Shown piece after piece: positions 24,699 through 56,480 of a DNA stretch of 64,000 nucleotides. Origin of the DNA: Candidatus Micrarchaeia archaeon. Its GTDB lineage: Archaea; Micrarchaeota; Micrarchaeia; CABMEP01. The position numbers and the translations under genes were made by a program. The DNA is taken from the NCBI GenBank assembly GCA_038886535.1, contig JAVZXS010000001.1:214259-278258 (forward strand), read 5' to 3'. Within the stretch, counting starts at the first letter, position 1. Each line of letters opens with the position of its first letter. The notes below the pieces were generated by a model. That model saw only the letters and a list, made by a program, of their open reading frames with translations, was not told where the DNA came from and made no database searches.

Positions 24699-25937
24699 AT
24701 GAAGAACATATCTATTTTAGGTTCTACAGGAAGTATAGGTACTCAGACATTAGACGTTATAAGAAATCATAAGAATAAATTTAGAGTAGTGGGTTTAGCT
24801 GCATATGGTACTGATAAAGATATAGATCTTATGGTTGAGCAGATACATGAATTTAAACCTAAAATCGTATCAATGTACAGAACCGATGCAGCGATTAAGC
24901 TTAAAGAAAGATTGATGCATGATAATTTAGGTTATGGTCAAAAGATAGTGATCCTATCTGGTAATGAAGGTCTTATTTCAGTTTCTACTTTCCCTATGGT
25001 TGATACAGTTGTAACTGCAGTTGTTGGAAGTGTCGGCTTAATTCCTACACTAGAGGCAATAAAGAAAAAGAAAAATATAGCTCTTGCAAACAAAGAAACA
25101 TTAGTGTGTGCTGGAAGCATAGTTATGGAAAATGCAAAAAAGTACGGAGTAAAAATTATGCCAATAGATAGCGAACATTCAGCAATTTTTCAGTCTTTAC
25201 AAGGTAATAAAAAGGAGCAAGTAAAGAGAATAATATTAACATGTTCAGGAGGTCCATTTAGAGATGAAAAATTATGGCCCGCAGAAAAAATAAATGAAGC
25301 GACTCGAGAACAAGCACTTAAACATCCAACCTGGAATATGGGTGGAAAGATTACTATTGACAGTGCAACACTCATGAATAAAGGTTTAGAGGTTATAGAA
25401 GCTCATTGGCTTTATAATATTCCTTATGAACAAATTTCAGTTGTAATACACCCTCAGTCTATAATTCATTCAATGGTTGAATATGTTGATGGTTCTATAA
25501 TGGCTCAGATTGGTGTTCACGATATGCGTATTCCGATTCAATATGCGTTATCCTATCCAGATAGATTACCAAGCGGTGATTATGCATTTTTAGATTTGAT
25601 TAAAGTTTGTAATCTTACATTTTTTGAACCAGATACAGTCAGATTTCCAGCTCTATTATATGCATACGAAGCAGGCAAGATCGGCGGAACAATGCCTACA
25701 GTTATGAATGCAGCAAATGAAGTAGCAGTTGTAGAATATTTCTTACAAGGAAAGATTAAATTCGGTGACATAATAAGAGTAGTAAGACATACGATGGATG
25801 TCCATAAGCATACAGTTGTTCAGAATCCAAACCTTCAAGACATTCTTCAAGCAGATATATGGGCAAGAGAACACGTTCGTTCGGTTTTAAATGTAGTTAT
25901 ACAAGATAAAAGTTGGAAAAATATAAATTCATTCTAA
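24699..25937 (+). CDS. dxr: 1-deoxy-D-xylulose-5-phosphate reductoisomerase
   Basis: GSTGSIG, LANKE, DSEH, SGGPF, HPTWNMGGKITIDSATLMNKGLEVIEA, HPQSIIHS, NAANE. Confidence 0.98.
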   Translation: MKNISILGSTGSIGTQTLDVIRNHKNKFRVVGLAAYGTDKDIDLMVEQIHEFKPKIVSMYRTDAAIKLKERLMHDNLGYGQKIVILSGNEGLISVSTFPMVDTVVTAVVGSVGLIPTLEAIKKKKNIALANKETLVCAGSIVMENAKKYGVKIMPIDSEHSAIFQSLQGNKKEQVKRIILTCSGGPFRDEKLWPAEKINEATREQALKHPTWNMGGKITIDSATLMNKGLEVIEAHWLYNIPYEQISVVIHPQSIIHSMVEYVDGSIMAQIGVHDMRIPIQYALSYPDRLPSGDYAFLDLIKVCNLTFFEPDTVRFPALLYAYEAGKIGGTMPTVMNAANEVAVVEYFLQGKIKFGDIIRVVRHTMDVHKHTVVQNPNLQDILQADIWAREHVRSVLNVVIQDKSWKNINSF

Positions 25938-26017
25938 AGTTATTAAAAATATAGCAAAAATCGATATAATTGAAATAATTAGAAAAGAAATAAAATAAAA
26001 AAGATTTATGTTCAGAA

Positions 26018-26398
26018 TTATTGTTCTTTCTTCCATAATCCATGGATGTTACAGTATTCTCTTGCATTTATTTTCTTTGCATTTATTTTGAATTCAGCCT
26101 CAGGAGTTTGACCTGGTTTTAGGTAATTTCTATATATTTTATCATCTGCAAGCACTTCTATAAATTCAATGTAATGTTCGGGTTCCATTGGATGTGGAAT
26201 AGAACCTATTTTAACTTTAAAGCCACCTCTAATCTTTTCGATTACAGGTACATGTTTTTCATACCCTTGATCTTCTGTTTTTTCTTCTAGTTTTTCCATA
26301 TTCTTATTGCAACAGACCAAAGTTCCAACTCCTGCATGAGCTATTTCAACTATATTTCCACATACACTGCATTTATATATCTGATTAAGTTCTGTCAT
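26018..26398 (-). CDS. dfx: desulfoferrodoxin (2Fe superoxide reductase)
   Basis: CSVCGN...CC, EKHVP, HPM...HYI, CNIHGLW. Confidence 0.96.
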
Positions 26399-26424
26399 AT
26401 TATCACCATTTTAAATATTTATTT

Positions 26425-27027
26425 TCAATATTCTTCACACTTCAATTGATAGAAAGCTTTAGGATGGTCACAAGATGGACATTTTTCAGGAGGGAATTTT
26501 CCAAAGTGTACATAACCACACTCTCTACATACCCACCAAACTTTATCGTTCTTATTAAAGAATGTACCTTTTTCAAGCTGTTCAAGTATCTTTTTATATC
26601 GTTCTTCATGGTGCTCTTCAGCTTTAGCGATGGCCCTTAATCTCTGTGCTATTTCTTTTAACCCTTCCTTTTCAGCTATGTCAGCGAATTCAGGATACAT
26701 TTTTGCATATTCATAGTTTTCTCCTGCGATTGCAGCTTTAAGATTATCGATAGTATTTCCGAATACGGTTGGAGCGGATGCCTCAACTTTTATTTCATTG
26801 TACTTCTCTATCTTTTCTCCTCTCTCAGCAGCTTTTTTCTTCAGTTCATTTATCAGTTTAAATAGCCAACTTGCATGTTCTCTCTCATTATCTGCAGTTA
26901 TAAGGAATATTTCTGCAATTTGCTCATATCCTTCATTTCTTGCCACTTTCGCATAGAAAGTATATCTATTTCTTGCTTGACTTTCACCTATAAATGCCTT
27001 CGCTAAATTTTCAATCGTCTTCTCCAT
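26425..27027 (-). CDS. rbr: rubrerythrin
   Basis: AFIGESQARNRY, EREH, EEHH, C-terminal CRECG...CPSC. Confidence 0.96.
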   Translation of the reverse strand: MEKTIENLAKAFIGESQARNRYTFYAKVARNEGYEQIAEIFLITADNEREHASWLFKLINELKKKAAERGEKIEKYNEIKVEASAPTVFGNTIDNLKAAIAGENYEYAKMYPEFADIAEKEGLKEIAQRLRAIAKAEEHHEERYKKILEQLEKGTFFNKNDKVWWVCRECGYVHFGKFPPEKCPSCDHPKAFYQLKCEEY

Positions 27028-27200
27028 TCCAACACCTCCAAAATTAGACATATATATTTGATTGAAAATGTTCATAAATATATCTATAACTTAATTTGTG
27101 ATGTTCCTGATGTAAAAGATAAATTAAGCGAGGTATAGTAATATTTATAAATCTAATATAATATTATATATTTAACGATTTTTAGATCGTTTCCCGGCAA

Positions 27201-27288
27201 AGCGGTCTCTGCGATCGATTAACGCGAGAGACTCACATATCATTTGATATGTGACAGGTATACTGCATCTTTGATGCACTACCGCGCT
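27201..27288 (+). promoter_or_regulatory. structured leader upstream of rpl3 (candidate r-leader)
   Basis: GC-enriched island with three hairpins closed by AGCG/CGCT. Confidence 0.5.
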
Positions 27289-27353
27289 ATAGAATTGAAA
27301 GCATTTCATATATAGTTTAGTATTCATATTCATAATTCAAAAAGTGATGGTAA

Positions 27354-28334
27354 ATGGGAAAAGTTATTAAGCCAAGAGCAGGTTCTCTTGCATTTAGACC
27401 AAGAAAACGTTCGAAAGACATTACTCCAAGAATGCGAACTTGGAGAATCACCGATAAAGTGCAGTTACTGGGATATCCAGTCTATAAAGTAGGAATGAAG
27501 CAAGCAGGAATAATAGATGATTCTAGATCTCCAACTAAGGGAATGGAATTAACAGTACCAGTTACAATTTTAGAAGCACCAAAGATAACTATTTATGGAG
27601 CAAGGCTTTATCAGAAAACTCTCACTGGAACAAAGTGTTTGGGTGATGCTCTTTCAATCAATACAAAAGTAGCATCAATGCTAGGTATGTCAAAGAAAGA
27701 TAAGAAAAGAAAGGATATAAAATGGCTAGAAGAAAAAATATCTTCATTTAATGATGAAGATAAAAAAGATCTTTATATTTCAGTTCTTGCCGTAACTAAT
27801 ACAAAGGAAGCAGGAATTCCAAAGAAGACTGGAGATACAGTTGAAATAGCAATAGGTGGAAATGATATTAAATCTCAATTGGAGTATGTCAAATCCATAC
27901 TTGGAAAGGATATAACTCCAAATGAAGTATTTGAAGAAGGAGAATATGTTGATGCAATAGCAGTAACAAGAGGACATGGCTGGCAGGGAGTTATTAGAAG
28001 ATTCGGTGTTCACAAACAAAGACCTAAGAATACTGGAAGAGTAAGACACAGAGGTACATTAGGTCCATGGCATCCAGCATATGTTATGTATACTGTTCCA
28101 CAAGCAGGTCAACATGGATTCCATAGAAGAACTCAATATAATAATAGAATACTTTTGATTGGAGATGATCCATCTAAAGTTAATATTCCTGGTGGTTACC
28201 CACACTATGGAGAAGTCAAATCTTCGTTTATATGTGTTAAGGGTTCAGTTCCAGGAACTCAAAAGAGATTTGTATTCCTTAGAAAATCCATAAGGAATAC
28301 TTCTGTGCAGAAACCACAGATTTTATGGTTCTGA
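27354..28334 (+). CDS. rpl3: ribosomal protein uL3
   Basis: PRAGSLAFRPRKR, GHGWQG, AGQHGFHRRT. Confidence 0.97.
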   Translation: MGKVIKPRAGSLAFRPRKRSKDITPRMRTWRITDKVQLLGYPVYKVGMKQAGIIDDSRSPTKGMELTVPVTILEAPKITIYGARLYQKTLTGTKCLGDALSINTKVASMLGMSKKDKKRKDIKWLEEKISSFNDEDKKDLYISVLAVTNTKEAGIPKKTGDTVEIAIGGNDIKSQLEYVKSILGKDITPNEVFEEGEYVDAIAVTRGHGWQGVIRRFGVHKQRPKNTGRVRHRGTLGPWHPAYVMYTVPQAGQHGFHRRTQYNNRILLIGDDPSKVNIPGGYPHYGEVKSSFICVKGSVPGTQKRFVFLRKSIRNTSVQKPQILWF

Positions 28335-28360
28335 AATTCAAAAGATAATAGGTTGATCAT

Positions 28361-29140
28361 ATGGTAAGTATTTCATTATATTCTCAAAATGGTTCACCAA
28401 CTGGAAAAATAGAGCTTCCAGAGATATTTAGAACAGAGATAAGAGAAGATCTTATCAGAAGAGCAGTTTTATCTGAGGAATCAGAAAAACTACAACCAAA
28501 AGGAGCTTTTCCAAGAGCAGGTTTGCAAACAACTGCAAGGTATATTGGTAGGAAGGATGCTTATCACTCACTCAAAAACAGAGGAATTGCAAAGCTTCCA
28601 AGAGAACTCTATCCAAAAGGAAGAATCGGAAGAGTAAGGGTAGTTCCATGGGCAGTAAAAGGTAGGAGAGCTCATCCTCCAAAAGTAGAAAAAGTTCTTA
28701 TTGAGAGGATAAATAAAAGAGAAAAAAAGAAAGCACTTCATTCTGCAATTGCAGCTACCGCTAATAAGGAAATGGTTGGCAAGAAACACATATTACCAAA
28801 GATAGACATCCCTATTGTTCTTGATGATTCGTGCGAATCTTTATCAAAAACAAAAGAAGTTGTTTCTTTATTTGAACATCTTGATCTTATGAAGGATATT
28901 GAAAGAGCTGAACAAAGAACTAAAAGAAATAATGGAAGAAAAGGTGGGGTAAAAACACCTAAGTCAATTCTTTTAATCGCTGCGAAGGATTCTAAGCTTC
29001 TTAAAGCAGCAAAGAACCTTCCAGGTGTTACAGTTACAACGATAGATAATCTTAAAGTTTCAGATCTTGCACCTGGTGGAGTACCAGGCAGATTAACAGT
29101 TTGGACAAAATCTGCAATCGAAAATTTAAGTAAGGTTTAA
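28361..29140 (+). CDS. rpl4: ribosomal protein uL4
   Basis: IREDLIRRA, GRRAHPPK, LAPGGVPGRLTVW. Confidence 0.97.
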   Translation: MVSISLYSQNGSPTGKIELPEIFRTEIREDLIRRAVLSEESEKLQPKGAFPRAGLQTTARYIGRKDAYHSLKNRGIAKLPRELYPKGRIGRVRVVPWAVKGRRAHPPKVEKVLIERINKREKKKALHSAIAATANKEMVGKKHILPKIDIPIVLDDSCESLSKTKEVVSLFEHLDLMKDIERAEQRTKRNNGRKGGVKTPKSILLIAAKDSKLLKAAKNLPGVTVTTIDNLKVSDLAPGGVPGRLTVWTKSAIENLSKV

Positions 29141-29175
29141 CTATATATTGAAATGTATAATAAGTGGGTGAAATT

Positions 29176-29421
29176 ATGATTATATATCCCGTAACAACTG
29201 AAAAGGCAATAAATCAAATTTCAAAGAACAATACTTTAGTATTTAATGTTGATCCTAAACAAACTAAGAGATCAATAAAGGAGTATATCGAAAAAGAATA
29301 TGGCGTTAAGGTTGCTTCAGTAAATGTACTAAATAATTTCTCAAATAAAAAAGTAGCATACGTTAAGCTTAAAAAGGAATATTCAGCAATGGATCTTGCG
29401 TCAAAACTTAAGATATTGTAA
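29176..29421 (+). CDS. rpl23: ribosomal protein uL23
   Basis: YPVTTEKA, NTLVF, KVAYVKL. Confidence 0.95.
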   Translation: MIIYPVTTEKAINQISKNNTLVFNVDPKQTKRSIKEYIEKEYGVKVASVNVLNNFSNKKVAYVKLKKEYSAMDLASKLKIL

Positions 29422-29458
29422 ATTATATTGATAGTTTAATGATTAGATAGGTGTGTTT

Positions 29459-30196
29459 ATGGGTAAAATGTTAAATCAACAAAGAAGAGGAAAGGGAAGT
29501 CCAGCATTCTCTGCTCCATCGCATAAATTTAATGCAAAAGTTTCATTTAGATCTTACGATGAAAAAGAAAAGAATTCTGTAGTTAAAGGAAAAGTTATAG
29601 AATTCATCAATAATCCTGCCCACAGTGGTTTAATAATGAATGTAAAGACTGAAGATGGCCAGATAGTTTCACTTCTTGCCCCAGAAGGAATTGCAATAGG
29701 AGATGAGATAGAATTTGGGGCTAATGCAGGAATTAAATTAGGAAATGTTCTTCCTCTTGCAAAGATTCCAGATGGAATGTATGTTTATAATATAGAGTTA
29801 GTTCCAGGAGACGGTGGAAAGCTAATAAGAGCAGCTGGAACATCAGGAACAGTAATATCTCATACAGATAAAGAGGTTTATGTTGCATTACCATCAAAGA
29901 AGGTTAAAATATTCAATGCTAATTGCAGAGCACAGATCGGATTAATTTCAATGGGTGGAAGATTAATGAGACCTGTTTTCAAGGCAGGAAAGAAATATCA
30001 CATGGTGGCTTCAACAGCAAGATATTGGCCAAAAGTCAGAGGAGTTGCAATGTCTGTATATGACCATCCATTCGGTGGAAAGCAGCACCACCCAGGTCGT
30101 TCAACGATTGTTGCAAGGAACGCACCACCGGGAAGAAAGGTTGGTCTTTTGGCAGCAGCTTCTGTTGGAAGAGGAAAGAAAAGAAAGAAAGTTTAA
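29459..30196 (+). CDS. rpl2: ribosomal protein uL2
   Basis: QRRGKG, WPKVRGVAM, HPFGG, PPGRKVG. Confidence 0.97.
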   Translation: MGKMLNQQRRGKGSPAFSAPSHKFNAKVSFRSYDEKEKNSVVKGKVIEFINNPAHSGLIMNVKTEDGQIVSLLAPEGIAIGDEIEFGANAGIKLGNVLPLAKIPDGMYVYNIELVPGDGGKLIRAAGTSGTVISHTDKEVYVALPSKKVKIFNANCRAQIGLISMGGRLMRPVFKAGKKYHMVASTARYWPKVRGVAMSVYDHPFGGKQHHPGRSTIVARNAPPGRKVGLLAAASVGRGKKRKKV

Positions 30197-30227
30197 TATT
30201 TCGAGATGTTCATAAAGGAGTGATTAA

Positions 30228-30611
30228 ATGGCAAGGAAATTTATATTTCGTGGAAAAACTCTTGAAGAGCTTCAGGCAATGTCTCTTGATGAATTTGCAA
30301 ATTTAATTAAATCAAGAGCAAGAAGATATATTAAGAAGATGCCAATCAAGTACAAAAAACTTCTAATAAAGGCAGAGAAAATTGGCACCTCTAAACCAAT
30401 TAAAACACATCTCAGAGAAGCAGTTATAATTCCTAAATGGGTTGGCATGAAATTTATGGTTCACAGTGGTAAGGAATTTAAGCAAGTGAACATTCAACCA
30501 GAGATGGTTGGATTTAGATTGGGAGATTTTGTCCATACAACTGGAAGAGTTATTCACAGTGGTCCAGGTATTGGTGCTACAAGAGGTTCGAAAGCAGTAG
30601 CTTTGAAATAA
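30228..30611 (+). CDS. rps19: ribosomal protein uS19
   Basis: FRGKTLEEL, KTHLR, PGIGATRGS. Confidence 0.96.
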   Translation: MARKFIFRGKTLEELQAMSLDEFANLIKSRARRYIKKMPIKYKKLLIKAEKIGTSKPIKTHLREAVIIPKWVGMKFMVHSGKEFKQVNIQPEMVGFRLGDFVHTTGRVIHSGPGIGATRGSKAVALK

Positions 30612-30657
30612 TCATTAAAGTTAAGATATGTAGTTGAATGTTTGAAACGGTGTTTAT

Positions 30658-31353
30658 ATGGTTCATTACGAATATGGTTTCAATAAGAAATCACAATACA
30701 GCGAAAAGCAGATTGCAAAGGCACAACAGTACAACATAGATGCATCCTATAAGGATCTTTGTGCAGTTTGTGATAATATAAGAGGAATGTCTGCAGAAGA
30801 GGGAACCAAATATCTAAATGCAGTTCTTGAAGGCTTTCCAGTACTTTATAGGAGATGGAATAAGAAGCTAGGTCATAGAAAAGAACTTGGAGGAAGAAAA
30901 GGAAGATATCCAATTAAAGCAGCTAAAATAGTTTTAGGTGTTTTAAAAAATGCAATCGCAAATGCAACTTCAAAAGGTCTTGATCAATTAATGATAATTC
31001 ATGCTTCAGCAAATAAACAAGCCATTTATCCTCGTCTTCAATCTAAAGGAAGACAGATGAGATCAAACTATGAAACTGCAAGAGTAGAAATAATTCTTGC
31101 AGGAAAAGAAAACGAAGAGCTTCTCAAGCAACAGAAGCAGAAAATAGAACAGAGAGCAAAAGCAAAGGCTGAAGCTGCTGAGATGGAAAAGAAAATAGAG
31201 AAAACAGTCGAAGAGAAGACAGAGGAAGTTGTTTCCGAAGTAAAAGAAAAACAAAAAGCTGAAAATGTAGAACAAAAATCAGCTGAAAAAACAGATAAGA
31301 AACCGAAGGAAACGAAAAAAGCAAAGACTGAAGAATCTAAAAACAAGGGTTAA
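30658..31353 (+). CDS. rpl22: ribosomal protein uL22 with K/E-rich C-terminal extension
   Basis: GRYPIKAA, NAIANA; synteny. Confidence 0.95.
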   Translation: MVHYEYGFNKKSQYSEKQIAKAQQYNIDASYKDLCAVCDNIRGMSAEEGTKYLNAVLEGFPVLYRRWNKKLGHRKELGGRKGRYPIKAAKIVLGVLKNAIANATSKGLDQLMIIHASANKQAIYPRLQSKGRQMRSNYETARVEIILAGKENEELLKQQKQKIEQRAKAKAEAAEMEKKIEKTVEEKTEEVVSEVKEKQKAENVEQKSAEKTDKKPKETKKAKTEESKNKG

Positions 31354-31381
31354 TATTTATGCTTAATTAAGGAGTGATTCA

Positions 31382-32113
31382 ATGGCAATTGAAAGAAAAT
31401 TCATAGAGGATGCAGTTACTAGGTATCAAATAGCGAATTTCCTAAGAGAAAAGTTAGAGAGAGTTGGATTTAGTAATGTTACAATACAGAGAACTCCAAT
31501 GGTTACACGAATAACCGTTGAAGTTGCAAATCCGGGTAGATTGATTGGTAAAAAAGGAAAATCAATAAAGACATTAGCAGATACAATACAAAGAGAATTC
31601 GGAGTTAATGATCCACAGATTGCAGTGGTTCCAGTTGAAAAAGTTGAACTAGAACCAAGACTTGTTGCATATTCAATCGCAAAAAATATAGAAGCAGGTA
31701 AACCATTAAGAGCATTAATACACTCATCTTTAAAGAAAATAATTGACGCAGGTGCACTTGGCGCTGAGATCGTTGTAGGTGGAAAGATTGCAGCAAAGGG
31801 AGCAAAGGCAAAGAGTATGCGTGTTGCTTGGGGATACTTACCAAAAGCAGGTGAAGTTGTTAAACAAATAAAGAAGGCCCAAGTAACAGCAAGACCAAAA
31901 TATGGTGCAATAAATGTAAGAGTTTCAATTGCTCCACCTACTGCAGTATTTCCGGATAAAGTTTCAAAAGTTGAAGTTCCTAATATAATTAAATATTCTG
32001 AAGAAAATGAGAGTAAAGAGCAGCAGTTGGAGTCAAAGAAAGAACAGAAAAAAGAAATGAAGATGGAGCAGCTCCAACAAAAGAAACATTCTGCTCAAAA
32101 AAGAAGGAAATAA
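31382..32113 (+). CDS. rps3: ribosomal protein uS3
   Basis: KH motif PGRLIGKKG, GALGAEIVVGGK. Confidence 0.96.
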   Translation: MAIERKFIEDAVTRYQIANFLREKLERVGFSNVTIQRTPMVTRITVEVANPGRLIGKKGKSIKTLADTIQREFGVNDPQIAVVPVEKVELEPRLVAYSIAKNIEAGKPLRALIHSSLKKIIDAGALGAEIVVGGKIAAKGAKAKSMRVAWGYLPKAGEVVKQIKKAQVTARPKYGAINVRVSIAPPTAVFPDKVSKVEVPNIIKYSEENESKEQQLESKKEQKKEMKMEQLQQKKHSAQKRRK

Positions 32114-32147
32114 TTTCCGCACTTAGGCGGTTATGTGATGTGATCAT

Positions 32148-32390
32148 ATGAAAGTAAAAGATATAAAAAATATGAGTACTGATGAAATGAAAGCTAAAAT
32201 TGCTGATCTCGAAAAAGAATTAAGCATAGAATACGGAACAAGGTCTTCAGCAGCAGGAAAATCTAGAAACTACGGTAAGATAAGAACAATTAAAAAAACA
32301 ATCGCAAGAATGAAGACCTTTATCAGAGCAAGAGAATTAGGTATTCTCGGTAACGAAACTAACAAAGAAAAAATTCAAAATAAGAAATAA
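32148..32390 (+). CDS. rpl29: ribosomal protein uL29
   Basis: KIRTIKKTIARMKT; synteny. Confidence 0.93.
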   Translation: MKVKDIKNMSTDEMKAKIADLEKELSIEYGTRSSAAGKSRNYGKIRTIKKTIARMKTFIRARELGILGNETNKEKIQNKK

Positions 32391-32439
32391 TAATTTTGTA
32401 ATTAATATTAATTGATCGATAAATTATATTATATACGAG

Positions 32440-32802
32440 GTGAAGAAAACGGCTGAAAATACATGCCCTATCTGCGGGGTACACAAATTGATAGGTGACA
32501 TATGTTCCGGTTGTGGACTTCCTAAGGACATATGTTCATGCGCTGCAATTGAGAAGGAAACAGCGCAAAAGATAAAAGTAACAATAACAAAAGCAAAATT
32601 CAGGAAACTTGTTACCATCGTATCCGGTGTTGAAAAGAATTCAATTGAGCGAGTTGCAAAGCAACTCAAACAATCACTGGCATGCGGTGGAACAGTTAAG
32701 AATGATGAAATAATACTTCAAGGAGACCACGGAGCGAAAATAAAACAATTGCTAATTAAGGCAGGTTATCCTGAAGAAAACATTTCAATAATCCGAAAAT
32801 AA
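32440..32802 (+). CDS. translation initiation factor aIF1 (SUI1)
   Basis: LKQSLACGGTVK...LQGDH; GTG start. Confidence 0.93.
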   Translation: MKKTAENTCPICGVHKLIGDICSGCGLPKDICSCAAIEKETAQKIKVTITKAKFRKLVTIVSGVEKNSIERVAKQLKQSLACGGTVKNDEIILQGDHGAKIKQLLIKAGYPEENISIIRK

Positions 32803-32819
32803 TCATTGATGATGATTAA

Positions 32820-33137
32820 ATGTCAGACCAAAAAAAATCGATTCAAAGTATTTCAGTAAATTCAAAATTAAAAAATCTGAAATACTTAATCGAATATATT
32901 GGTTTGACTGTAGAAGTAATCAACAGCTCTTCCCCAGAGCAAATAGGAATAAAGGGGTTGGTTGTTGATGAAACAAAAAATGCATTCAAAATTGAGAAAA
33001 AAGATGGAAAGGAGGTTTTGATACCTAAGAAAGGTTCTACCTTCCTCTTTGAAAAAGGAGGGGAGACCTTTACAGTTGAGGGATCAAAAATACTATATCC
33101 TCCTGAAGAGAGACTTAAAAAAATAAAATTCGAATGA
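32820..33137 (+). CDS. rnp1: RNase P protein subunit Rpp29/POP4
   Basis: IGLTVEV...GIKGLVVDETKN...IPK; synteny. Confidence 0.9.
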   Translation: MSDQKKSIQSISVNSKLKNLKYLIEYIGLTVEVINSSSPEQIGIKGLVVDETKNAFKIEKKDGKEVLIPKKGSTFLFEKGGETFTVEGSKILYPPEERLKKIKFE

Positions 33138-33183
33138 TTTGGATTAAAGATTGATATTAATAGTTTAATAAACGGTTGATCTT

Positions 33184-33498
33184 ATGGTAGGAAAAGAAGA
33201 AAACTGTGGAGATGCAAAATGTTTCATTCATGGTGATGTAAAAGTCAGAGGCCAAGTATTAACCGGTACGGTTGTTAGTACGAAGGCAAAAAAGACTGCA
33301 ATAGTAGAGAGACAGAGAATGGTCTACATACCGAAGTATAAAAGGTATGCAAGAACTCGTTCAAGATATGCTGCTCACAATCCACCTTGCATAAATGCAA
33401 AAGTAGGTGATAAGGTTAAGATAGGAGAATGCAGAAAACTCAGCAGAACAAAAACATGGACAATAATAGAGATAATAGGTAAGGATGAAACTTTGTAA
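33184..33498 (+). CDS. rps17: ribosomal protein uS17
   Basis: PKYKRY, AHNPPC, GECRKLSRTK. Confidence 0.96.
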   Translation: MVGKEENCGDAKCFIHGDVKVRGQVLTGTVVSTKAKKTAIVERQRMVYIPKYKRYARTRSRYAAHNPPCINAKVGDKVKIGECRKLSRTKTWTIIEIIGKDETL

Positions 33499-33531
33499 TT
33501 TGATGAATTTAATATTTATAAGGTGAAAATT

Positions 33532-33930
33532 ATGAAAGCACTACAATCAAAAATTCCAAAATCTTTGCCAATAGGGGCGATCATAAATTGTGATGATAAT
33601 AGTGGAGCAAAAGTAGTTCAAATAATAGGTATGTTGAAAGCTCCAACAAAGAGAAGAAGAAAACCAAGCGTTGGAATCGGAGATGTAGCTATAGTAGCAG
33701 TCAAGAAAGGTTCTCCACAGATGATCAAAAAGGTAGAAAAGGCATTAATAATAAGACAGAGAAAACCTTTCAGGAGAGCAAATGGTATACGAATAATGTT
33801 TGAAGACAATGCATGTGCATTGATAGATGATGCAGGATTGCCAAAAGGAACAGAGATCAAGGGTGTTGTAGCAAGAGAAATAGTAGACCGATATCCAAAA
33901 GTCGCTGGAATCGCATGGTCAATTATATAA
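33532..33930 (+). CDS. rpl14: ribosomal protein uL14
   Basis: DNSGAK, FEDNA, KGTEIKGVVARE. Confidence 0.96.
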   Translation: MKALQSKIPKSLPIGAIINCDDNSGAKVVQIIGMLKAPTKRRRKPSVGIGDVAIVAVKKGSPQMIKKVEKALIIRQRKPFRRANGIRIMFEDNACALIDDAGLPKGTEIKGVVAREIVDRYPKVAGIAWSII

Positions 33931-33948
33931 TCTTTGTAGGGTGGATTT

Positions 33949-34275
33949 ATGATAAGCTCAAGAAAACCGAGAACACAAAGAAAATTCAGATATACTGCTC
34001 CACTTCATTTAAGAAAGAACTTCGTTCATGTTCATCTAAGTAAGGATTTGAGAACAAAACTGAAGAAAAGAGCAGTTCAAGTAAAGAAAGGAGACAAGGT
34101 AAAAATACTAAGAGGTAAATTTAAAGGTAAAGAAGGAAAAGTAGCAAAGGTAATTCTTTCCGATGCAAAGATATTTGTTGAAGGTATTACGATTAAGAAA
34201 GCAAACGGAAAGGAAACATTTTATCCTATCGATCCTTCAAATGTAATGATAATTGAAATGACTGAAAGAAAATAA
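33949..34275 (+). CDS. rpl24: ribosomal protein uL24
   Basis: SRKPRTQRK, KGDKVKILRG, IDPSNV. Confidence 0.96.
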   Translation: MISSRKPRTQRKFRYTAPLHLRKNFVHVHLSKDLRTKLKKRAVQVKKGDKVKILRGKFKGKEGKVAKVILSDAKIFVEGITIKKANGKETFYPIDPSNVMIIEMTERK

Positions 34276-34286
34276 ATAGTGATAAT

Positions 34287-34463
34287 ATGCTGACTCAATT
34301 AAAAACAAATATTTTAGATAAGAAGAGTAATAAAATTAAGCAGTGCAATTTCCTTATCGAATCAAGATTGATAAGGAATTTAGATCTTAAAGCTAGAATT
34401 GAAAACATAATCGTTTCAAACAATTCAAAACCATCTATTAAAAATAAGAGAAGATTCGATTAA
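34287..34463 (+). CDS. small orphan ORF (58 aa) inside the ribosomal operon
   Basis: GTGAT SD-like sequence upstream of ATG; MLTQLKTNILDKK...KNKRRFD; fills the rpl24-rps4e gap. Confidence 0.35.
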   Translation: MLTQLKTNILDKKSNKIKQCNFLIESRLIRNLDLKARIENIIVSNNSKPSIKNKRRFD

Positions 34464-34489
34464 TATTTATCAATTAAGGTGTGATTTTT

Positions 34490-35176: not shown

Positions 35177-35212
35177 ATATCATGGTCTTTATCATGAATA
35201 AGAAGTGATAAT

Positions 35213-35882: not shown

Positions 35883-35937
35883 TAATCTCTCATGCTAATA
35901 TATAATTAATTAATAAAAGATAAAAGAGTGTGATTGT

Positions 35938-36318: not shown

Positions 36319-36362
36319 AATATTAATTATAATTTATTCAATTTACTACTTAAGGTGTTAAT

Positions 36363-45904: not shown

Positions 45905-47392
45905 ATGGAAATTCAGGAAATCAATCGCCTAGTCAGGCAGAAGAACAAGCTTCTGAAGCCTGGTGCGGCAGAGGCATTAAAAGAGCTTAAAGACGATCAA
46001 ATAAGAGAAATAATAGAGAAAATAGCAGCACTTCCTTCTCCTTTTATTTCAGAAACAGACATAAGAGAACTGACCAACCAGATCAAAAAGCCAGATTTTG
46101 TTGAAGTTAAGCGCTCTTCAGATTTTCATCCTACTGCAAAGGAATATGGCCATGAATTCAAAATTTACGAAGACCATGATATAACTGGTAAATCAAAGTG
46201 CAAGGGAGAGCTTGATGATTTCGTAAAATATTTCAATGACAGATACAGGAAAATAAGAGATTTATTTGTATCCAGAACAAATGCGAAATTTCCATTGATT
46301 GATATAGAGAAGTTTGGGGATATGAAGGTTGGAGACACTGTGAGGGTTATAGGTATAGTTTCTTCAAAAACAGTTACAAAAAACAAGCACATAATGCTTC
46401 AGATAGAAGATCCAACCGGCCAATTAGCAGTTCTTGTCCTTAACAATCAGGATAACAAGCAGGTATTTGAAAAAAGCAACAGGATAGTTAACGACGAGAT
46501 TCTAGCATTCGACATTAAGAAAGGAACCAACCTCAATATTCTTGCAGATGTTACCTGGCCTGATCTTCCATTCAAAGAAAAGAAAAAGATAGAAAAGGAG
46601 ATGGCCATCGCATTCATATCAGACATACATGTTGGAAGCTCCCATTTCATGGCAAAGAATTTTGAGAATATGATAAAATGGCTGAATGGTTCAGGCCCAC
46701 ATAAAGAATTGGCAGAAAAAGTTGGGTACTTGCTTCTAGGCGGTGATTTAGTAGATGGGATAGGCATCTACCCAAACCAGGACAAAGAGCTTATTATAAA
46801 AGATGTTTATGAGCAATATAAGGTTCTAAATGAGTTCCTAGAGCTTGTTCCAGACCATATAAAGATAATTGCAATTCCAGGAAATCACGATGCAGTAAGG
46901 CATGCAGAGCCTCAGCCCGCTTTGGGTGAAGATATGATTGCAAAAGATGGAAGAACATATTCAGTTGGAAATCCTGCATTCATGAATATTGAAGGATTGA
47001 AGGTACAAATGTACCATGGCTATACAATGGAATCCTTGGTTCAGGATGTTCAAGGATTATCGCTTGCAAGACCTGAAGAGATTGCAATAGAGCTTTTAAA
47101 GACAAGAAGTATGTCTCCAATATTTGATAAGAGCATGATTGTCCCAGAACATAAGGATTATATGTTCATAGAAGAGATAGATATGTTTCTTACAGGACAC
47201 ATTCATAAGATAGGATATGGAGAATACAGGGGTTGTGTGATAATGAATGGAGGAACATGGATTGACAAGACAACTGCATGGCAGTTAAGAAGAGGTTTCA
47301 GCCCAACTCCTGCAATAATGGGAATTTACGACATGCATAACGCAAGAGTTTCGCATGTTGATTTCTCAACAAGTGAAGTTGCATTTGAGTGA
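45905..47392 (+). CDS. polB: DNA polymerase D small subunit DP1
   Basis: SDIHVGS, GDLVDGIGIYP, PGNHD, YHG, GHIH phosphoesterase motifs. Confidence 0.96.
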   Translation: MEIQEINRLVRQKNKLLKPGAAEALKELKDDQIREIIEKIAALPSPFISETDIRELTNQIKKPDFVEVKRSSDFHPTAKEYGHEFKIYEDHDITGKSKCKGELDDFVKYFNDRYRKIRDLFVSRTNAKFPLIDIEKFGDMKVGDTVRVIGIVSSKTVTKNKHIMLQIEDPTGQLAVLVLNNQDNKQVFEKSNRIVNDEILAFDIKKGTNLNILADVTWPDLPFKEKKKIEKEMAIAFISDIHVGSSHFMAKNFENMIKWLNGSGPHKELAEKVGYLLLGGDLVDGIGIYPNQDKELIIKDVYEQYKVLNEFLELVPDHIKIIAIPGNHDAVRHAEPQPALGEDMIAKDGRTYSVGNPAFMNIEGLKVQMYHGYTMESLVQDVQGLSLARPEEIAIELLKTRSMSPIFDKSMIVPEHKDYMFIEEIDMFLTGHIHKIGYGEYRGCVIMNGGTWIDKTTAWQLRRGFSPTPAIMGIYDMHNARVSHVDFSTSEVAFE

Positions 47393-47396
47393 TAAT

Positions 47397-50300
47397 ATGA
47401 TTAATTCTGCAGACGAATACATGAAGTTACAAATTTCAAAAATCTACGAGATTGCAACAGAGGCAAGGAAAAAAGGCATAGACCCTTTAGATTCAGTTGA
47501 GATAGTGCCAGCCCCGGATCTTGCAGCTAGAGTGGAGGGAATTGTAGGTCCAAAAGGAATCGCAGAATATATACGTTCATTACCGCATGACAAATCAAGA
47601 ACACAGATTGCATTTATGGCAGCTGAGGCAGTAATAGAAGGAAAGTTTGGGGATTTTGGTGGAAGAGAGAAGCTTATAGAGCAGGCATTAAGGACAGGAA
47701 CAGCAGTTCTTACAGAAGGAGTTCTAGTCGCTCCTACGGAAGGAATTTCAAGCGTTAAGATACATCAGAATCAGGACGGCACAGAATATCTTGCTGTTTA
47801 TTATTCAGGTCCAATAAGATCTGCAGGAGGAACCGCAGCAGCTCTTAGCGTTCTCTTGGCAGACTTTCTTAGAAGAAAGATTGGCCTTGCAGAATGGAGA
47901 CCTACAGACACTGCTGTTGAACGATATCTTGAAGAGATGGAACTTTATGATGCAAGAGCAGCAAGATTGCAATATAAGCCTTCAGATGATGAGTTTAGGC
48001 ACATAGTAAGAAATTGTCCTGTATGTGTAACAGGAGATCCAACTGAGGATTTTGAAGTGGGTGCATATAGAAATGTGCCTGGAATAGAGACGAATAGGGT
48101 AAGGGGAGGAATGGCCCTTGTCCTTTGTGAAGGAATCGCACAAAAAGCAGCAAAGGTTCTTGGCCAGGCAAAGAAGCTTGGAATAGATTGGAGCTGGCTT
48201 GAATCAGTTATAAAGGCGCCAAAGGCAAAGGAGGCAAAGGTTACAAAGATTGAGCCAAATCCAAAATACATAGAAGAGGTCGTAGCAGGCAGACCGGTAA
48301 TTGCATATCCATCAAGATTCGGAGGATTCAGATTAAGGTATGGGAGAACAAGACTTAGCGGATTAATGGCAAAGGGAATACATCCTGCTACAATGATAAT
48401 ACTTGATTCATTTCCAGCGATAGGAACTCAATTCAAGCTTGAAAGACCTGGAAAGGGATGCGTTCTCACTCCTTGCGAGACAATTGAACCACCAGTTGTT
48501 AGACTTAAGGATGGTTCAGTTGTTAGAGTCGAATCCAGAGAGCATGCAGAAAAGATAAAGGACAATGTACATACAGTTCTTTTCATTGGAGACATTCTTG
48601 TTTCATACGGAGATTTCCTTAAATCAAATTCACCTCTGCTCCCAGCAGGATATAATGAGGAATGGTGGCTTGAGGAATTGAGAGATGCAATCGAATTGAA
48701 ACAAGAACTGAAGAATATTTATTCTAATATAGATCCATATAAGGTTGATTTTGATACTGCTCTAAAGATCTCAAAGGAGACAGGCATTCCTTTGCATCCA
48801 AAATTTACGTTCTTCTGGTCTAATATATCAAATGATGAAGTTAAGGAATTGATACACTGGCTTTCTTCAGGAGAATGGAAATCAGACTTATTAAATCCTC
48901 TGAATCCAAAAGAGCTTAGAGTAGTATATGATCCTGCAAAGAGTATACTTGAAAAACTTCTAGTTCCTCATAGGGTAGAAAGAGATCAGATAATAATAGA
49001 AGGAGACAATGCAAAATCAATCTTCATTTCTTTAGGTTTACATCCAGGACAAAAACCAGATAAATCATTAGTAAATTCTATTCTGAAAAGGATAGATGAT
49101 TATTGCTTGAAACTGCAACCAGATGAAGAAAAGGGAATTGGATCAGTTGATCTGGTTTCAATTCTTTCAGGAATAAAAATTAGAGACAAGGCAGGTACTT
49201 GGATAGGAAGTAGAATGGGAAGGCCTGAAAAATCAAGAGAGCGACATATGAAACCCGCTGTTCATTCTTTGTTTCCAATCGGAAATGCAGGTGGCAAGAC
49301 CCGTAACATAATTAAGGCATATAAAGATGCAAAGGCAAGGAAGCTAAAATATGATGTCACAGTAGAAATAGCAAGAATGCGATGTCCATACTGTGGTGGT
49401 TTGTCGTTTTCAAGAAAATGTCAAAGATGTGGAAAGCAGACAAAGCCAGAGAGAATATGCAGCAAATGTGGCAAACCATCGGCAACAGAATTTCACATAT
49501 GCTCTACAGTACAGACAAAGCCAGGAAAAGAGATAAAATCCAAGACAGTTTTCTATGATTCAAGACCAATAAATATAGTTGAGATTGTGGAAGAGGCAGC
49601 AGCTAAAACAAAAGTACTTCCAGAAGAAGTAAAATGCGTGAACGGATTGGTAAGTGAATTGAAGATTCCAGAGCCTTTAGAAAAAGGAATATTAAGAGCA
49701 GTCCATGATGTTTCTGTTTTCAAGGATGGAACATGTAGATTTGATGCAACAAATGTTCCAGTTACTCACTTTTATCCACGCGAAATCGGAACTCCAATTT
49801 CAAAGCTTAGAGAACTTGGATATACAAAAGATGCATATGGAAATGAACTAAAGAGTGAGGATCAGCTTGTTGAACTTCTTCCACATGATATGATAGTATC
49901 AGAGAGATGCCTTAAATACATGGCAAGGGTTGCAAGATTTGTAGATGATGAACTCGTCAAGATCTACGGACTTCCTCCATATTATAATTTAAAGGAAGAC
50001 AGAGACATAATAGGTCATTTGGTTATAGAGCTTTCTCCGCACACCTCCTGTGGTATTGCCAGCAGAATAATAGGAACAACAAAAGCACATGTCTGCTATG
50101 CACATCCATATTTATTTGCAGCAAGTCGTCGAGATGCGGATGGAGATGAAAATGCAATAATGCTTCTTATGGATGGATTGCTAAACTTTTCAAAGCATTA
50201 CCTCCCAGTAACAAGAGGGGGCCAGATGGATGCACCGATTGTTCTGATGACTCATATTGATCCTTCAGAGGTTGACGACCAGGTACATGCATTGGAAGTA

Positions 50301-50882
50301 GTACAGAGATTCCCATCTTCATTTTATGAAGCAAGCTGGAGATTTGCACATCCTTCTGAATGCAAGATTGAGATTGTTTCAGATCGATTAGGAAAGGAGA
50401 ATGAAAAGTATAATTTATGGTTCACCCATCATACTCCAGATATGAATAACGGTGCACTTACAACTCAATATGTATATCTTAAATCAATGAAAGACAAAAT
50501 AAGTGCACAATTAGGTTTGGCAAAGAAAATTGCTGCTGTAGATGCGAGAGATGCAGCCGAGCGTCTTATAATGAGTCACTTTCTCCCAGATCTCTATGGT
50601 AACCTGCGTTCCTTTAGCACACAGCAAGTTAGATGCGTGGATTGCAATACGAAATATAGAAGAGTTCCATTATCAGGAAAATGTACAAAGTGTGGAGGCA
50701 AGCTTCTATTGACTGTGAATAGAGGTGGAATTGAAAAGTATCTGAAGATAACTAAGAATTTGATAGATGAATATAATCTTCCAAATTACCTAAGACAAAG
50801 AATACAGCTTCTTGAAAGAGACATACAATCAATATTCGAAGATGAAACAAGCAAGCAATTCAACCTTGCAGAGTTCATGTAG
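47397..50882 (+). CDS. polC: DNA polymerase D large subunit DP2 (no intein)
   Basis: GPIRSAGGT, GGFRLRYGR, RMGRPEK, DGD catalytic motif, C-terminal Zn finger. Confidence 0.98.
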   Translation: MINSADEYMKLQISKIYEIATEARKKGIDPLDSVEIVPAPDLAARVEGIVGPKGIAEYIRSLPHDKSRTQIAFMAAEAVIEGKFGDFGGREKLIEQALRTGTAVLTEGVLVAPTEGISSVKIHQNQDGTEYLAVYYSGPIRSAGGTAAALSVLLADFLRRKIGLAEWRPTDTAVERYLEEMELYDARAARLQYKPSDDEFRHIVRNCPVCVTGDPTEDFEVGAYRNVPGIETNRVRGGMALVLCEGIAQKAAKVLGQAKKLGIDWSWLESVIKAPKAKEAKVTKIEPNPKYIEEVVAGRPVIAYPSRFGGFRLRYGRTRLSGLMAKGIHPATMIILDSFPAIGTQFKLERPGKGCVLTPCETIEPPVVRLKDGSVVRVESREHAEKIKDNVHTVLFIGDILVSYGDFLKSNSPLLPAGYNEEWWLEELRDAIELKQELKNIYSNIDPYKVDFDTALKISKETGIPLHPKFTFFWSNISNDEVKELIHWLSSGEWKSDLLNPLNPKELRVVYDPAKSILEKLLVPHRVERDQIIIEGDNAKSIFISLGLHPGQKPDKSLVNSILKRIDDYCLKLQPDEEKGIGSVDLVSILSGIKIRDKAGTWIGSRMGRPEKSRERHMKPAVHSLFPIGNAGGKTRNIIKAYKDAKARKLKYDVTVEIARMRCPYCGGLSFSRKCQRCGKQTKPERICSKCGKPSATEFHICSTVQTKPGKEIKSKTVFYDSRPINIVEIVEEAAAKTKVLPEEVKCVNGLVSELKIPEPLEKGILRAVHDVSVFKDGTCRFDATNVPVTHFYPREIGTPISKLRELGYTKDAYGNELKSEDQLVELLPHDMIVSERCLKYMARVARFVDDELVKIYGLPPYYNLKEDRDIIGHLVIELSPHTSCGIASRIIGTTKAHVCYAHPYLFAASRRDADGDENAIMLLMDGLLNFSKHYLPVTRGGQMDAPIVLMTHIDPSEVDDQVHALEVVQRFPSSFYEASWRFAHPSECKIEIVSDRLGKENEKYNLWFTHHTPDMNNGALTTQYVYLKSMKDKISAQLGLAKKIAAVDARDAAERLIMSHFLPDLYGNLRSFSTQQVRCVDCNTKYRRVPLSGKCTKCGGKLLLTVNRGGIEKYLKITKNLIDEYNLPNYLRQRIQLLERDIQSIFEDETSKQFNLAEFM

Positions 50883-54193: not shown

Positions 54194-54488
54194 AAAAAAT
54201 CAACCAATACAATTATAATTTCGGCACTTGACGAAAATGGAATTGACACATAACGAGATTTTTAAATCTTATGTTTGATAGTTATAATTACAGGTACATA
54301 TTTTATGTACTTATAGACTTCCATGTACCCAATTGGAGGCCATGAAATTGAATATTGTGGATAATGCTTTACATTGTTGTATCTGCATCTGTTGTATGCA
54401 GAAGATCTACCAATTGAAACTTGGAAGTGTCTCAAAACTATATTATACATTTTAAGCTTTATAATATAGATATTTATGAGGTGAATTC

Positions 54489-56480
54489 ATGAAAGGAAAA
54501 GATCAAGGTAATCCAAAAACACCAGAAAGAAATCCAAATCAAAAGCATTCATTACATTCAGAATCGAAAACAGTAGAAGGATTGCTTCCTAAAATAAAAT
54601 CGCCTGATGATTTAAAGAAACTTCCAATAAGTGAATTACCAAAACTTGCAGCTGAAATAAGAGATGTGCTATTAAAAACGATTTCAAAGAATGGAGGTCA
54701 TCTTTCACCAAATATGGGTACTGTTGAATTAACTATTGCATTGCACAGAGTATTTAACTCTCCAAAAGATAAGATTCTTTTTGATACGGGTCACCAGTCA
54801 TATACTCATAAGTTGCTTACAGGAAGATATGAAAAATTCCATACATTAAGACAGCCAGGTGGACTTAGCGGCTTTACAGATCCAAGAGAAAGTGAGCACG
54901 ATCATTTTATTACTGGTCACGCAAGTCCAGCTATATGTCAGGCAATAGGAATGGCAATAGCAAGGGATGAAAAGAAGGAAAACTATGAGATCGTAGCAGT
55001 TATAGGTGATGGTGCACTAACTGGAGGGGTAGCACTGGAAGGTCTTAATTATGGTGGATATGCAGGCAAGAAGTTTATTTTAGTATTAAATGATAATAGA
55101 ATGTCATATGAACAAACGGTCGGAGGTCTGCAGGCATACAACAATAGGCTTTCATTTGGAAACAGAATCTTTGAGAGCCCAATATACCACCAGGTGAGAG
55201 GAGACATTCATCTTTTATTAGATAACGTTCCAAGAGAAAGAGAAGAGCTTCATGCAGCAGTAAGAAGACTTAGGGAGGCGGCTCTTTCAGTGCTTACACC
55301 AGGGATAGTGTTTGAGGAACTTGGTTACAGATATCTTGGTCCAATAGATGGGCACAATATTCCTCTGCTGATTGAAACATTCCAGAGAGCAAAGCTTATG
55401 AAAGGACCAGTATTGGTTCATGTAATAACAACAAAAGGAAAAGGAGTTCCATTCGCAGAACCATCTTCAGATAAACACGGCAAGTACCATGGTTTAGGAA
55501 AGTTTGATCCAGAGTCTGGTGAAATAATAAAGAATCCAGGAACACTTTCACCATACTTTGAAATATTTGGAAATAAACTTATAGAGCTTGCTAGAAAAGA
55601 TAAGAGAATATATGCTTTAACTGCAGCAATGCCTATAGGAAGTGGTCTGCTTCCATTTTCAAAAGAATTTCCAGAAAGATTTATAGATGTGGGAATAGCT
55701 GAGCAAAGTGAGGTTACTATAGCATCGGGTCTTGCGAAGGGTGGAATGAGGCCTGTTGTAGCAGTTCATTCATCTTTCTTGAAGAGAGCAATTGACGAAG
55801 TAATATATGAAGTTGCATTACAGAATCTGCCAGTTGTGTTTGCATTAAATAATGCAGGTCTTGTTGATGATAATGCAACTCAACAAGGTCCATTTGATAT
55901 TGTTTATATGAGGATGGTTCCAAATATGGTTGCAATGGCACCTGCAAATGAGCATGAGTTAGAGGCGATGCTTGAATTTGCTTTGTCCTGGGAGAAAGGT
56001 CCATCTTCATTAAGATATCCAAAAGCTTCAATAACAGGCATGCCAAAGCCACCTGCAGAAGAATTAAAGATTGAGCTTGGAAAAGGAAAGATTGAAGTAG
56101 AATACGGCGAGGATGTAGCAATAATTGCAATAGGAAGCATGGTAAATGATGCAATAAAGGCAGCGGAGTTATTGAAGAAGAAGGGAATAAATGCAACTGT
56201 TGTGAATGCAAGATTCATCAAGCCTCTTGATGAACAACTCATAATAGATGTAGCTTCAAGATGTGGTAGAGTAGTAACTGCCGAAGAGGGGCATGCATTA
56301 GGTGGATTTGGAAGCGGTGTGTTAGAGGTTCTTGCACATAACAACCTTCAAGTGCCTGTCAAGGTATTAGCTATTCCAGATAGATTCTTTGACCATGGAA
56401 AGAGAACAGATATGCTTAAGAGTATCGGTCTATCAGCAGAAGGAATAGCAGAAGCAGCTGAAAGGTTAATTAAAGGCTGA
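54489..56480 (+). CDS. dxs: 1-deoxy-D-xylulose-5-phosphate synthase (divergent acceptor site)
   Basis: GGHL, DTGHQSYTHKLLTGR, GDGALTGG..LNDN, GPIDGH, KGKG, IAEQ. Confidence 0.92.
   Translation: MKGKDQGNPKTPERNPNQKHSLHSESKTVEGLLPKIKSPDDLKKLPISELPKLAAEIRDVLLKTISKNGGHLSPNMGTVELTIALHRVFNSPKDKILFDTGHQSYTHKLLTGRYEKFHTLRQPGGLSGFTDPRESEHDHFITGHASPAICQAIGMAIARDEKKENYEIVAVIGDGALTGGVALEGLNYGGYAGKKFILVLNDNRMSYEQTVGGLQAYNNRLSFGNRIFESPIYHQVRGDIHLLLDNVPREREELHAAVRRLREAALSVLTPGIVFEELGYRYLGPIDGHNIPLLIETFQRAKLMKGPVLVHVITTKGKGVPFAEPSSDKHGKYHGLGKFDPESGEIIKNPGTLSPYFEIFGNKLIELARKDKRIYALTAAMPIGSGLLPFSKEFPERFIDVGIAEQSEVTIASGLAKGGMRPVVAVHSSFLKRAIDEVIYEVALQNLPVVFALNNAGLVDDNATQQGPFDIVYMRMVPNMVAMAPANEHELEAMLEFALSWEKGPSSLRYPKASITGMPKPPAEELKIELGKGKIEVEYGEDVAIIAIGSMVNDAIKAAELLKKKGINATVVNARFIKPLDEQLIIDVASRCGRVVTAEEGHALGGFGSGVLEVLAHNNLQVPVKVLAIPDRFFDHGKRTDMLKSIGLSAEGIAEAAERLIKG

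Follow-up and report, generated by a model that had tools for sequence, protein, structure and literature searches.

The use of the mevalonate pathway by archaea and of the 2-C-methyl-D-erythritol 4-phosphate (MEP) pathway by bacteria is part of the "lipid divide". The present analysis concerns a stretch of 64,000 nucleotides from the archaeal assembly GCA_038886535.1 (genome G000), hereafter the window, located at G000:C1:214259-278258 in a contig (C1) of 278 kb, in which two genes of the bacterial pathway, dxr and dxs, are found among archaeal core genes; coordinates without a contig name refer to the window. In DPANN archaea, sparse MEP enzymes have been reported and put down to transfer (Hoshino and Gaucher 2018, PMC6107057), while Castelle et al. 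2021 (PMC8204110) described co-located MEP genes in a monophyletic clade of 52 Woesearchaeota, citing Castelle and Banfield 2018 for an earlier notice, and the pathway was also reported in metagenome-assembled genomes (MAGs) of Woesearchaeota and Nanoarchaeota (mBio 2024, PMC10936187).

The closest description is that of PMC12892359 (Natl Sci Rev, November 2025), which reports a complete MEP pathway in the proposed order Zaosheniarchaeales, as well as MEP in Norongarragalinales and Micrarchaeales. Its Dataset S8 gives for Zaosheniarchaeales values of 0.875 for dxr, 0.125 for HMGCS, 0.0625 for each of HMGCR, MVK and ipk, and 0 for araM; in the same order, glycerol-1-phosphate (G1P) dehydrogenase is reported as absent and GGGPS and DGGGPS as present. 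Regarding the history of the genes, most of them "except dxs" are stated there to have been acquired horizontally. Consequently, MEP in this Micrarchaeota order is already known since late 2025, and the trait carried by the window is not new.

As for the genome analysed here, its gene content argues with good confidence that a hot-spring Micrarchaeota archaeon of about 1.1 Mb and 33% GC would produce isopentenyl diphosphate (IPP) and dimethylallyl diphosphate (DMAPP) through a complete bacterial-type MEP pathway and not through mevalonate. All seven activities represented in Escherichia coli by Dxs, Dxr and IspD-H are matched by equivalog-level models, and DXR and DXS align end to end with bacterial enzymes of solved structure at 300-520 bits. 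Compared to the canonical bacterial pathway, also named after 1-deoxy-D-xylulose 5-phosphate (DOXP or DXP), the host is archaeal, IspD and IspF are fused, DXS carries approximately 30 extra N-terminal residues and the products presumably feed G1P-based ether lipids. The archaeal mevalonate pathways (classical, haloarchaeal, Thermoplasma-type and archaea-type), present in sister lineages of the class, lead to the same end products, IPP and DMAPP, but have no homologous enzymes in common with this route, and HMGS, HMGR and MVK were not found in G000. The Woesearchaeota system of PMC8204110 is similar in being a bacterial-type MEP pathway in DPANN, in which IspD and IspF are likewise fused and the downstream prenyltransferase is archaeal; however, it belongs to another phylum and is described as one cluster, whereas five loci are present here, and its DXS and IspG fall in separate neighbour-joining (NJ) clades.

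The dxr gene is located at 24699-25937 on the forward strand and encodes a full-length DXR, which exceeds the cut-offs of TIGR00243 (513 against 316 bits) and NF009114 (523 against 461 bits), with all three Pfam DXR domains recognized (148, 135 and 134 bits). The open reading frame (ORF) as listed opens at GTG 24690 and ends at 25937, but ATG 24699 is the likely start, as residue 1 of the product from this codon (MKNISILGSTGSIG) aligns with residue 1 of 6mh4, the best-matching solved DXR (365 bits). In the alignment to solved DXRs, the motifs GSTGSIG, LANKE, DSEHSA, HPTWNMG and NKGLEVIEA are all intact, GSTGSIG, DSEHSA, HPTWNMG and NKGLEVIEA being those that we take to serve NADPH, metal and substrate binding. 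Upstream, at 24654-24676 (+), an A/T-rich TATA-like run (tatatatttaaa) preceded by the purine-rich stretch ggaaaag was read from the sequence, approximately 25-35 nt before the ATG. It is a possible archaeal promoter of dxr, though a weak one, since a TATA-like run is weak evidence in intergenic DNA of about 30% GC; the first-pass annotation had proposed a BRE-TATA motif for dxr. Immediately after dxr, the reverse strand (26018-27075) carries genes for a desulfoferrodoxin (superoxide reductase) and a rubrerythrin, an anaerobe-type oxidative-stress pair.

The dxs gene, at 54489-56480 (+), encodes a full-length DXS of 663 amino acids that reaches 722 bits on TIGR00204 (cut-off 466) and 350 bits on DXP_synthase_N, compared to only 194 bits on the best transketolase model, which places it in the DXS family and not among the transketolases. 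Its alignment to the DXS of E. coli (2o1s) covers 620 residues and shows the thiamine pyrophosphate (TPP)-binding GDG...NDN stretch to be intact. A Shine-Dalgarno-like GAGGTGA, also read from the sequence, lies at 54477-54483 (+), 4 nt upstream of the ATG, as the first-pass annotation had noted along with the two genes and the conserved motifs of DXR, the genes and the DXR motifs being confirmed by the family models and the alignments to solved enzymes. The approximately 30 N-terminal residues of DXS (54489-54590) are rich in K, N, P and S, fall outside the family model and are kept in the closest sister genomes. In addition, the 295-nt spacer upstream of dxs (54194-54488) holds short inverted repeats, and an Rfam scan at the gathering threshold recognized no family in it.

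The remaining pathway genes were sought by whole-genome family searches in G000 (1,136,835 bases in 40 contigs, 33% GC, 88.3% complete, 0.25% contamination) and scored against NCBIfam equivalog or domain cut-offs, all being found above these values. A fused ispDF encoding 413 aa (C2:115312-116553), neighbouring PCNA and Cdc6/Orc1, scores 182.3 bits on TIGR00453 in its IspD part (cut-off 181.3) and 118.9 bits on TIGR00151 in its IspF part (cut-off 116.45). Meanwhile, ispG (C2:43298-44524; TIGR00612, 376.7 bits, cut-off 280.25) and ispH (C2:47934-48803; TIGR00216, 295.2 bits, cut-off 187.85) are both accompanied by KaiC-like genes and RadA, and ispE (C4:46364-47293; TIGR00154, 159.9 bits, cut-off 138.7) by Pus10, the archaeal D-aminoacyl-tRNA deacylase DtdA and TFE-alpha. 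The MEP genes of G000 are therefore distributed over five loci (contigs C1, C2 and C4), each beside archaeal core genes. At 2.5 kb from ispDF, a 1670-aa SMC protein was observed with a LAGLIDADG-bearing intein near its N-terminus (L098:13066-18078; G000:C2:119066-124078).

Regarding the mevalonate pathway, in this 88% complete genome no match was obtained for HMG-CoA reductase with PF00368, a search that was positive in 5/5 mevalonate-using control genomes, or for archaeal HMG-CoA synthase with TIGR00748, and the mevalonate kinase model TIGR00549 gave only a 24-bit cross-match on ispE. The enzymes downstream of IPP and DMAPP are present, namely a polyprenyl synthase (C5, 208 bits), PcrB/GGGPS (C1, 169 bits) and a UbiA prenyltransferase (C1, 121 bits).

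From these assignments, and provided that the enzymes are active, DXS would convert pyruvate and glyceraldehyde-3-phosphate into DXP, which DXR would turn into MEP. IspDF and IspE would then lead from MEP through 4-diphosphocytidyl-2-C-methylerythritol (CDP-ME) and its phosphorylated form CDP-MEP to methylerythritol cyclodiphosphate (MEcPP), which IspG would convert into hydroxymethylbutenyl diphosphate (HMBPP) and IspH into IPP and DMAPP, these two Fe-S enzymes presumably being supplied with a reductant. The polyprenyl synthase, GGGPS and the UbiA-type prenyltransferase would carry the flux on to geranylgeranyl diphosphate (GGPP), geranylgeranylglyceryl phosphate (GGGP) and digeranylgeranylglyceryl phosphate (DGGGP), thus forming archaeal ether-lipid cores, presumably with a supply of G1P.

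When species-representative genomes were searched with DXR, a record named "Candidatus Micrarchaeia archaeon" ranked first, with 76% identity, followed at 51-56% identity by Nanoarchaeota- and Woesearchaeota-labelled MAGs and assorted bacteria. This separately assembled MAG, to which locus L007 belongs, is the nearest named relative and is among the Zaosheniarchaeales of PMC12892359, where Dataset S1 classifies it as p__Micrarchaeota; o__CABMEP01; f__CABMEP01; g__DTQF01 and the order is described as having about 33% GC, 0.5-1.0 Mb and springs of 60-80 °C as habitat. The 13 kb around dxr are collinear with L007 gene by gene, with 70-95% amino-acid identity. This kinship, together with the 33% GC and the hot-spring runs, which fit the description of the order, indicates a Micrarchaeota lineage close to that MAG, very probably of the same order, and not Woesearchaeota; the pathway is thus shared with that report, and the first-pass view of a lineage other than Woesearchaeota is borne out.

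The distribution among relatives was studied in a sample of 61 genomes, nine from the family of the window (f1, including G000) and 52 from other families. DXR is present in 7/9 genomes of the family and 2/52 elsewhere, IspG in 9/9 and 2/52, and true DXS, above the cut-off, in 9/9 and in a single genome elsewhere (G026); HMGR shows the reverse pattern, with 0/9 in the family, thus in none of the eight sister genomes, and 46/52 elsewhere. Completeness is 54% and 81% in the two family members that lack DXR. When the class was sampled evenly and more widely, with 401 genomes including one flagged unpublished (G085), DXR was found in 38, above the cut-off in 35, across at least eight families. HMGR is present in one of the 29 DXR-bearing Micrarchaeia outside the family, and G026 also lacks it. 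Within the class, MEP and mevalonate thus nearly exclude each other, as judged from DXR and HMGR in genomes that are kin and not independent, so that the counts carry no statistic. These counts indicate that mevalonate was replaced by MEP, not supplemented with it, and Dataset S8 of PMC12892359 agrees, although its text presents MEP as an addition to mevalonate.

Other genomes of the class also bear on the statement of PMC12892359 that sets dxs apart from horizontal acquisition. In mevalonate-bearing Micrarchaeia, sub-threshold "dxs" matches cover half of the model at 180-210 bits and correspond to ORFs of about 300 aa adjoining an N-terminal half, and for the two examples examined, a split transketolase is the best-scoring assignment. 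Neighbouring ORFs of about 285 and 325 aa, the halves of a split transketolase, were observed at L113 and L117 (G055 and G035) and in about 40 other genomes of the class, and such halves could be mis-scored as dxs in surveys based on KEGG Orthology (KO) assignments. Bona fide DXS is limited to lineages that have MEP. Because of this restriction and of the two transketolase examples, the "except dxs" statement, as worded in that source, may rest on KO mis-assignment.

Other families of the class show further arrangements. Among DXR-bearing genomes of f5 and f10, which are 83-94% complete, 18/19 have no DXS above the cut-off and many possess a dxr-ispH-ispG cluster; with G032 added, IspF is found in 8/20 and HMGR in 1/20. 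These genomes (G032, G133, G281, G395, G200, G267, G263, G158, G347 and others) look like DXS-less, possibly partial MEP sets without a mevalonate route. In G007, which belongs to another genus of the window's family, a dxs with 68% identity to that of the window adjoins a very divergent dxr and ispG (L104/L095, G007:C1:88494-93153). This DXR, with 33% identity and 195 bits, lies below the cut-off, and the arrangement may go back to an ancestral cluster, or this DXR may have been replaced or be evolving fast.

Several points count against the proposal that G000 relies on a complete MEP pathway in place of mevalonate. IspD and IspF exceed their domain cut-offs by 1-2.5 bits only, which is marginal, and the fused protein misses the proteobacterial bifunctional equivalog NF006899 (212 against 417 bits). 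As G000 is 88% complete, the missing mevalonate genes in this genome alone are no proof, and the claim of their absence relies on the family-wide pattern. G1P dehydrogenase gave no match in G000 with PF13685, which leaves the source of the lipid backbone unexplained, and glycerol-3-phosphate (G3P) dehydrogenase, CarS, IDI and IPK were not searched for. As to expression, the sequencing runs listed include none of RNA. In addition, the text of PMC12892359 has its orders "also" with MEP and places Zaosheniarchaeales on an apparent ipk-based route, which reads as coexistence, against the ipk value of 0.0625 in its own Dataset S8. Such a coexistence, with the mevalonate genes hidden in the unassembled 12% of G000, would agree with that wording and with the completeness of the assembly, but it is very improbable and was rejected, since HMGR is missing from all nine genomes of the family and from all but one of the 29 other DXR-bearing Micrarchaeia, compared to its presence in 46/52 non-family relatives, and the HMGCR value of Dataset S8 is 0.0625 in the order. 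A somewhat less improbable explanation, though still a poor one, is that DXS and DXR do not serve bulk isoprenoid synthesis, DXP being used for example for thiamine or pyridoxal and the lipids or their precursors being obtained from a host. DPANN archaea often scavenge lipids, the missing G1P dehydrogenase would fit, and Zaosheniarchaeales are described in PMC12892359 as metabolically reduced and host-dependent. Against this role, the polyprenyl synthase, GGGPS and UbiA enzymes are present in G000, and the family as a whole retains MEP, with the mevalonate route missing. Moreover, IspD, IspE, IspF, IspG and IspH are all intact, and we know of no role for them beyond IPP and DMAPP synthesis; the explanation was rejected on the basis of these five later steps, the downstream prenyl enzymes and the family-wide retention. 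Contamination or a chimeric assembly, by which a bacterial dxr and dxs would have been binned with or joined to archaeal DNA, would account for bacterial-type enzymes in a 40-contig metagenome assembly, but its probability is close to nil. Both genes are placed inside a 278-kb contig among archaeal core genes, all contigs of G000 have 28-38% GC, and the contamination estimate is 0.25%. Compared to 508 long ORFs of the genome, the GC content of dxr (z = 0.08) and dxs (z = 1.42) is host-like, as are their GC3 and codon usage, ispG being somewhat GC-rich (z = 2.35). Besides the collinearity with L007, the order hypothetical-dxs-NMD3-PadR is common to five genomes of the genus and partly to two more, and the dxr-dxs spacing is 27-35 kb on a single contig in G001, G004 and G005. 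Logan contigs from hot-spring metagenome runs, of 26.7 kb (22870-38000) and 5.2 kb (23536-28707), extend across the junctions of dxr without a single difference; both runs may be sources of the assembly itself. In a run belonging to another study, a contig of 1.2 kb also has dxr at this site, with 94% identity and another spacer upstream of it. Sister synteny, bridging contigs and host-like composition thus make contamination or chimerism very unlikely and effectively refute it, in agreement with the first-pass annotation, which had considered the composition host-like and contamination improbable.

A last alternative concerns the origin of the genes, namely that they came from the Woesearchaeales (Nanoarchaeota) clade, or from one acquisition common with it, through the spread of a cassette from DPANN to DPANN. 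It is unlikely, yet the least unlikely of these alternatives. In its favour, some of the closest DXRs outside the family (51-56% identity) come from records labelled Woesearchaeota and Nanoarchaeota, IspDF is fused in both lineages, and a first NJ tree of DXR had the two clades side by side. However, that grouping appears in 4/100 bootstraps, and the gene layouts differ: dxs-ispG-dxr-ispDF-ispE-ispH form one cluster in four Woese-type loci (L011, L012, L015 and L035), with parts of it in L008 and L017, compared to the five scattered loci of G000. Several other Micrarchaeia have partial MEP clusters, and in the genus of the window the genes are fully dispersed. The trees were built by NJ from Kimura-corrected distances with 100 bootstraps, on a sampling biased toward similarity to the query DXR, also among bacteria; the sequences left out were L091 (a duplicate), two loci whose genomes are flagged unpublished and the partial IspG of L136 and L021, and for IspG and the 69-sequence DXR analysis, 40 of 80 named loci were removed by hand thinning for redundancy. 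In the DXS tree, built on 633 columns from 39 sequences, a single clade (86) unites all Micrarchaeia, the family and G111 being joined at 100, and it stands apart from the Woese-type clade (81). In the IspG tree (32 sequences), the window falls in a clade supported at 100 with f12, f5 and f10, while the Woese-type clade (83) and f8, f14 and f33 are elsewhere. Thus, DXS and IspG group with other Micrarchaeia, at 86 and 100 of 100 bootstraps, and are not nested in the Woesearchaeales clade. In the DXR tree (69 sequences), the family without G007 is supported at 59, its union with f8, f27 and L062 at 21, and the Woese-type clade at 99; the deep nodes of the DXR trees have supports of 0-30, so that no bacterial donor can be named. 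Taken together, the NJ trees argue against a derivation from Woesearchaeales and for exchange within Micrarchaeia. DXR and DXS were also observed in three archaeon-labelled MAGs, one of them labelled Thaumarchaeota (L064, L069 and L062; DXS loci L172-L174). Their DXSs form an own clade supported at 100, L064 and L069 form a DXR pair (support 100) next to a sequence from CPR Curtissbacteria, and the DXR of L062 is placed elsewhere, possibly indicating another independent archaeal MEP lineage, or mislabelled bins.

The MEP genes are old residents of the lineage: in G000 they are spread over five places next to genes of archaeal replication, translation and transcription, their composition is host-like, and their positions are kept in sister genomes. 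In the window, dxr and dxs flank a ribosomal-protein operon followed by SecY (27354-41721, +), as recognized by Pfam. The ribosomal proteins from L3 to L15 span 27354-40145, the operon encoding L3, L4, L2, S19, L22, S3, SUI1, RNase P p29, S17, L14, L24, S4e, L5, S8, L6, L32e, L19e, L18, S5, L30 and L15, then SecY; an adenylate kinase gene also lies between dxr and dxs. The same interval contains the two subunits of DNA polymerase D (PolD), the small subunit DP1 at 45905-47392 (+), with Metallophos and an OB fold (Pfam), and the large subunit DP2 at 47355-50882 (+), with the N-terminal, central and catalytic domains of PolC_DP2 at 349-414 bits. Upstream of dxr are MCM, aIF2-beta, aIF1A, RIO kinase, NAC, PriL, PriS, L44e and aIF2-alpha, the primase subunits being encoded by two adjacent but separate genes, PriL at 16557-17591 (+; DNA_primase_lrg, 81 bits) and PriS at 17600-18748 (+; DNA_primase_S, 59 bits). 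The archaeal setting and the unfused primase named in the first-pass annotation are thereby confirmed, and its suggestion of a domesticated MEP route in a different, primase-unfused lineage is supported by the finding of ispD-H, by the searches that found no HMGS, HMGR or MVK, and by synteny and lineage.

Two further genes of the window could be related to lipid head groups. A CDP-alcohol phosphatidyltransferase (15777-16412, -; PF01066, 64.5 bits) is a candidate lipid head-group transferase that would act after the isoprenoid steps. At 1.6 kb downstream of dxs, a myo-inositol-1-phosphate synthase (58121-59410, +; NAD_binding_5, 299 bits, and Inos-1-P_synth, 115 bits) is a possible supplier of inositol; together they would fit an inositol head group. 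The Rfam scan of the window recognized only three tRNAs, one of which extends over 149 nt (43840-43988, +; 52.9 bits), was not reported by ARAGORN and is probably an intron-containing archaeal tRNA. Other features observed are an ankyrin-repeat protein of 292 aa (11038-11916, +) and a large NosD/beta-helix repeat protein (61841-64000, +) that continues past the window end.

A joint reading of these results can be put forward tentatively, in which MEP would have fully displaced mevalonate wherever it is present in Micrarchaeia. The pathway of the family would then be a mosaic built inside the class, with DXS and DXR nearest to f8 and f27 and IspG nearest to f5, f10 and f12, independently of Woesearchaeales, and the published vertical dxs would be a split-transketolase artefact, while f5 and f10 would keep DXR, IspG and IspH without a detectable DXS, using DXP of another origin or supplied by a host. 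The near exclusivity of MEP and HMGR, the restriction of true DXS to MEP lineages, where PMC12892359 has dxs apart from horizontal acquisition, the scattered layout and the DXS-less sets of f5 and f10 are additions for revisiting the published gene history, as is the grouping of the DXS and IspG of the window with other Micrarchaeia genes in the NJ trees. As MEP in Woesearchaeota has been known since 2018-2021, the window represents a confirmed and well-assembled further example rather than a discovery. Regarding its meaning for archaeal membranes, it appears that archaeal ether lipids are made in this lineage from precursors which a bacterial pathway supplies, suggesting that the precursor route can be swapped while the membrane type remains unchanged.

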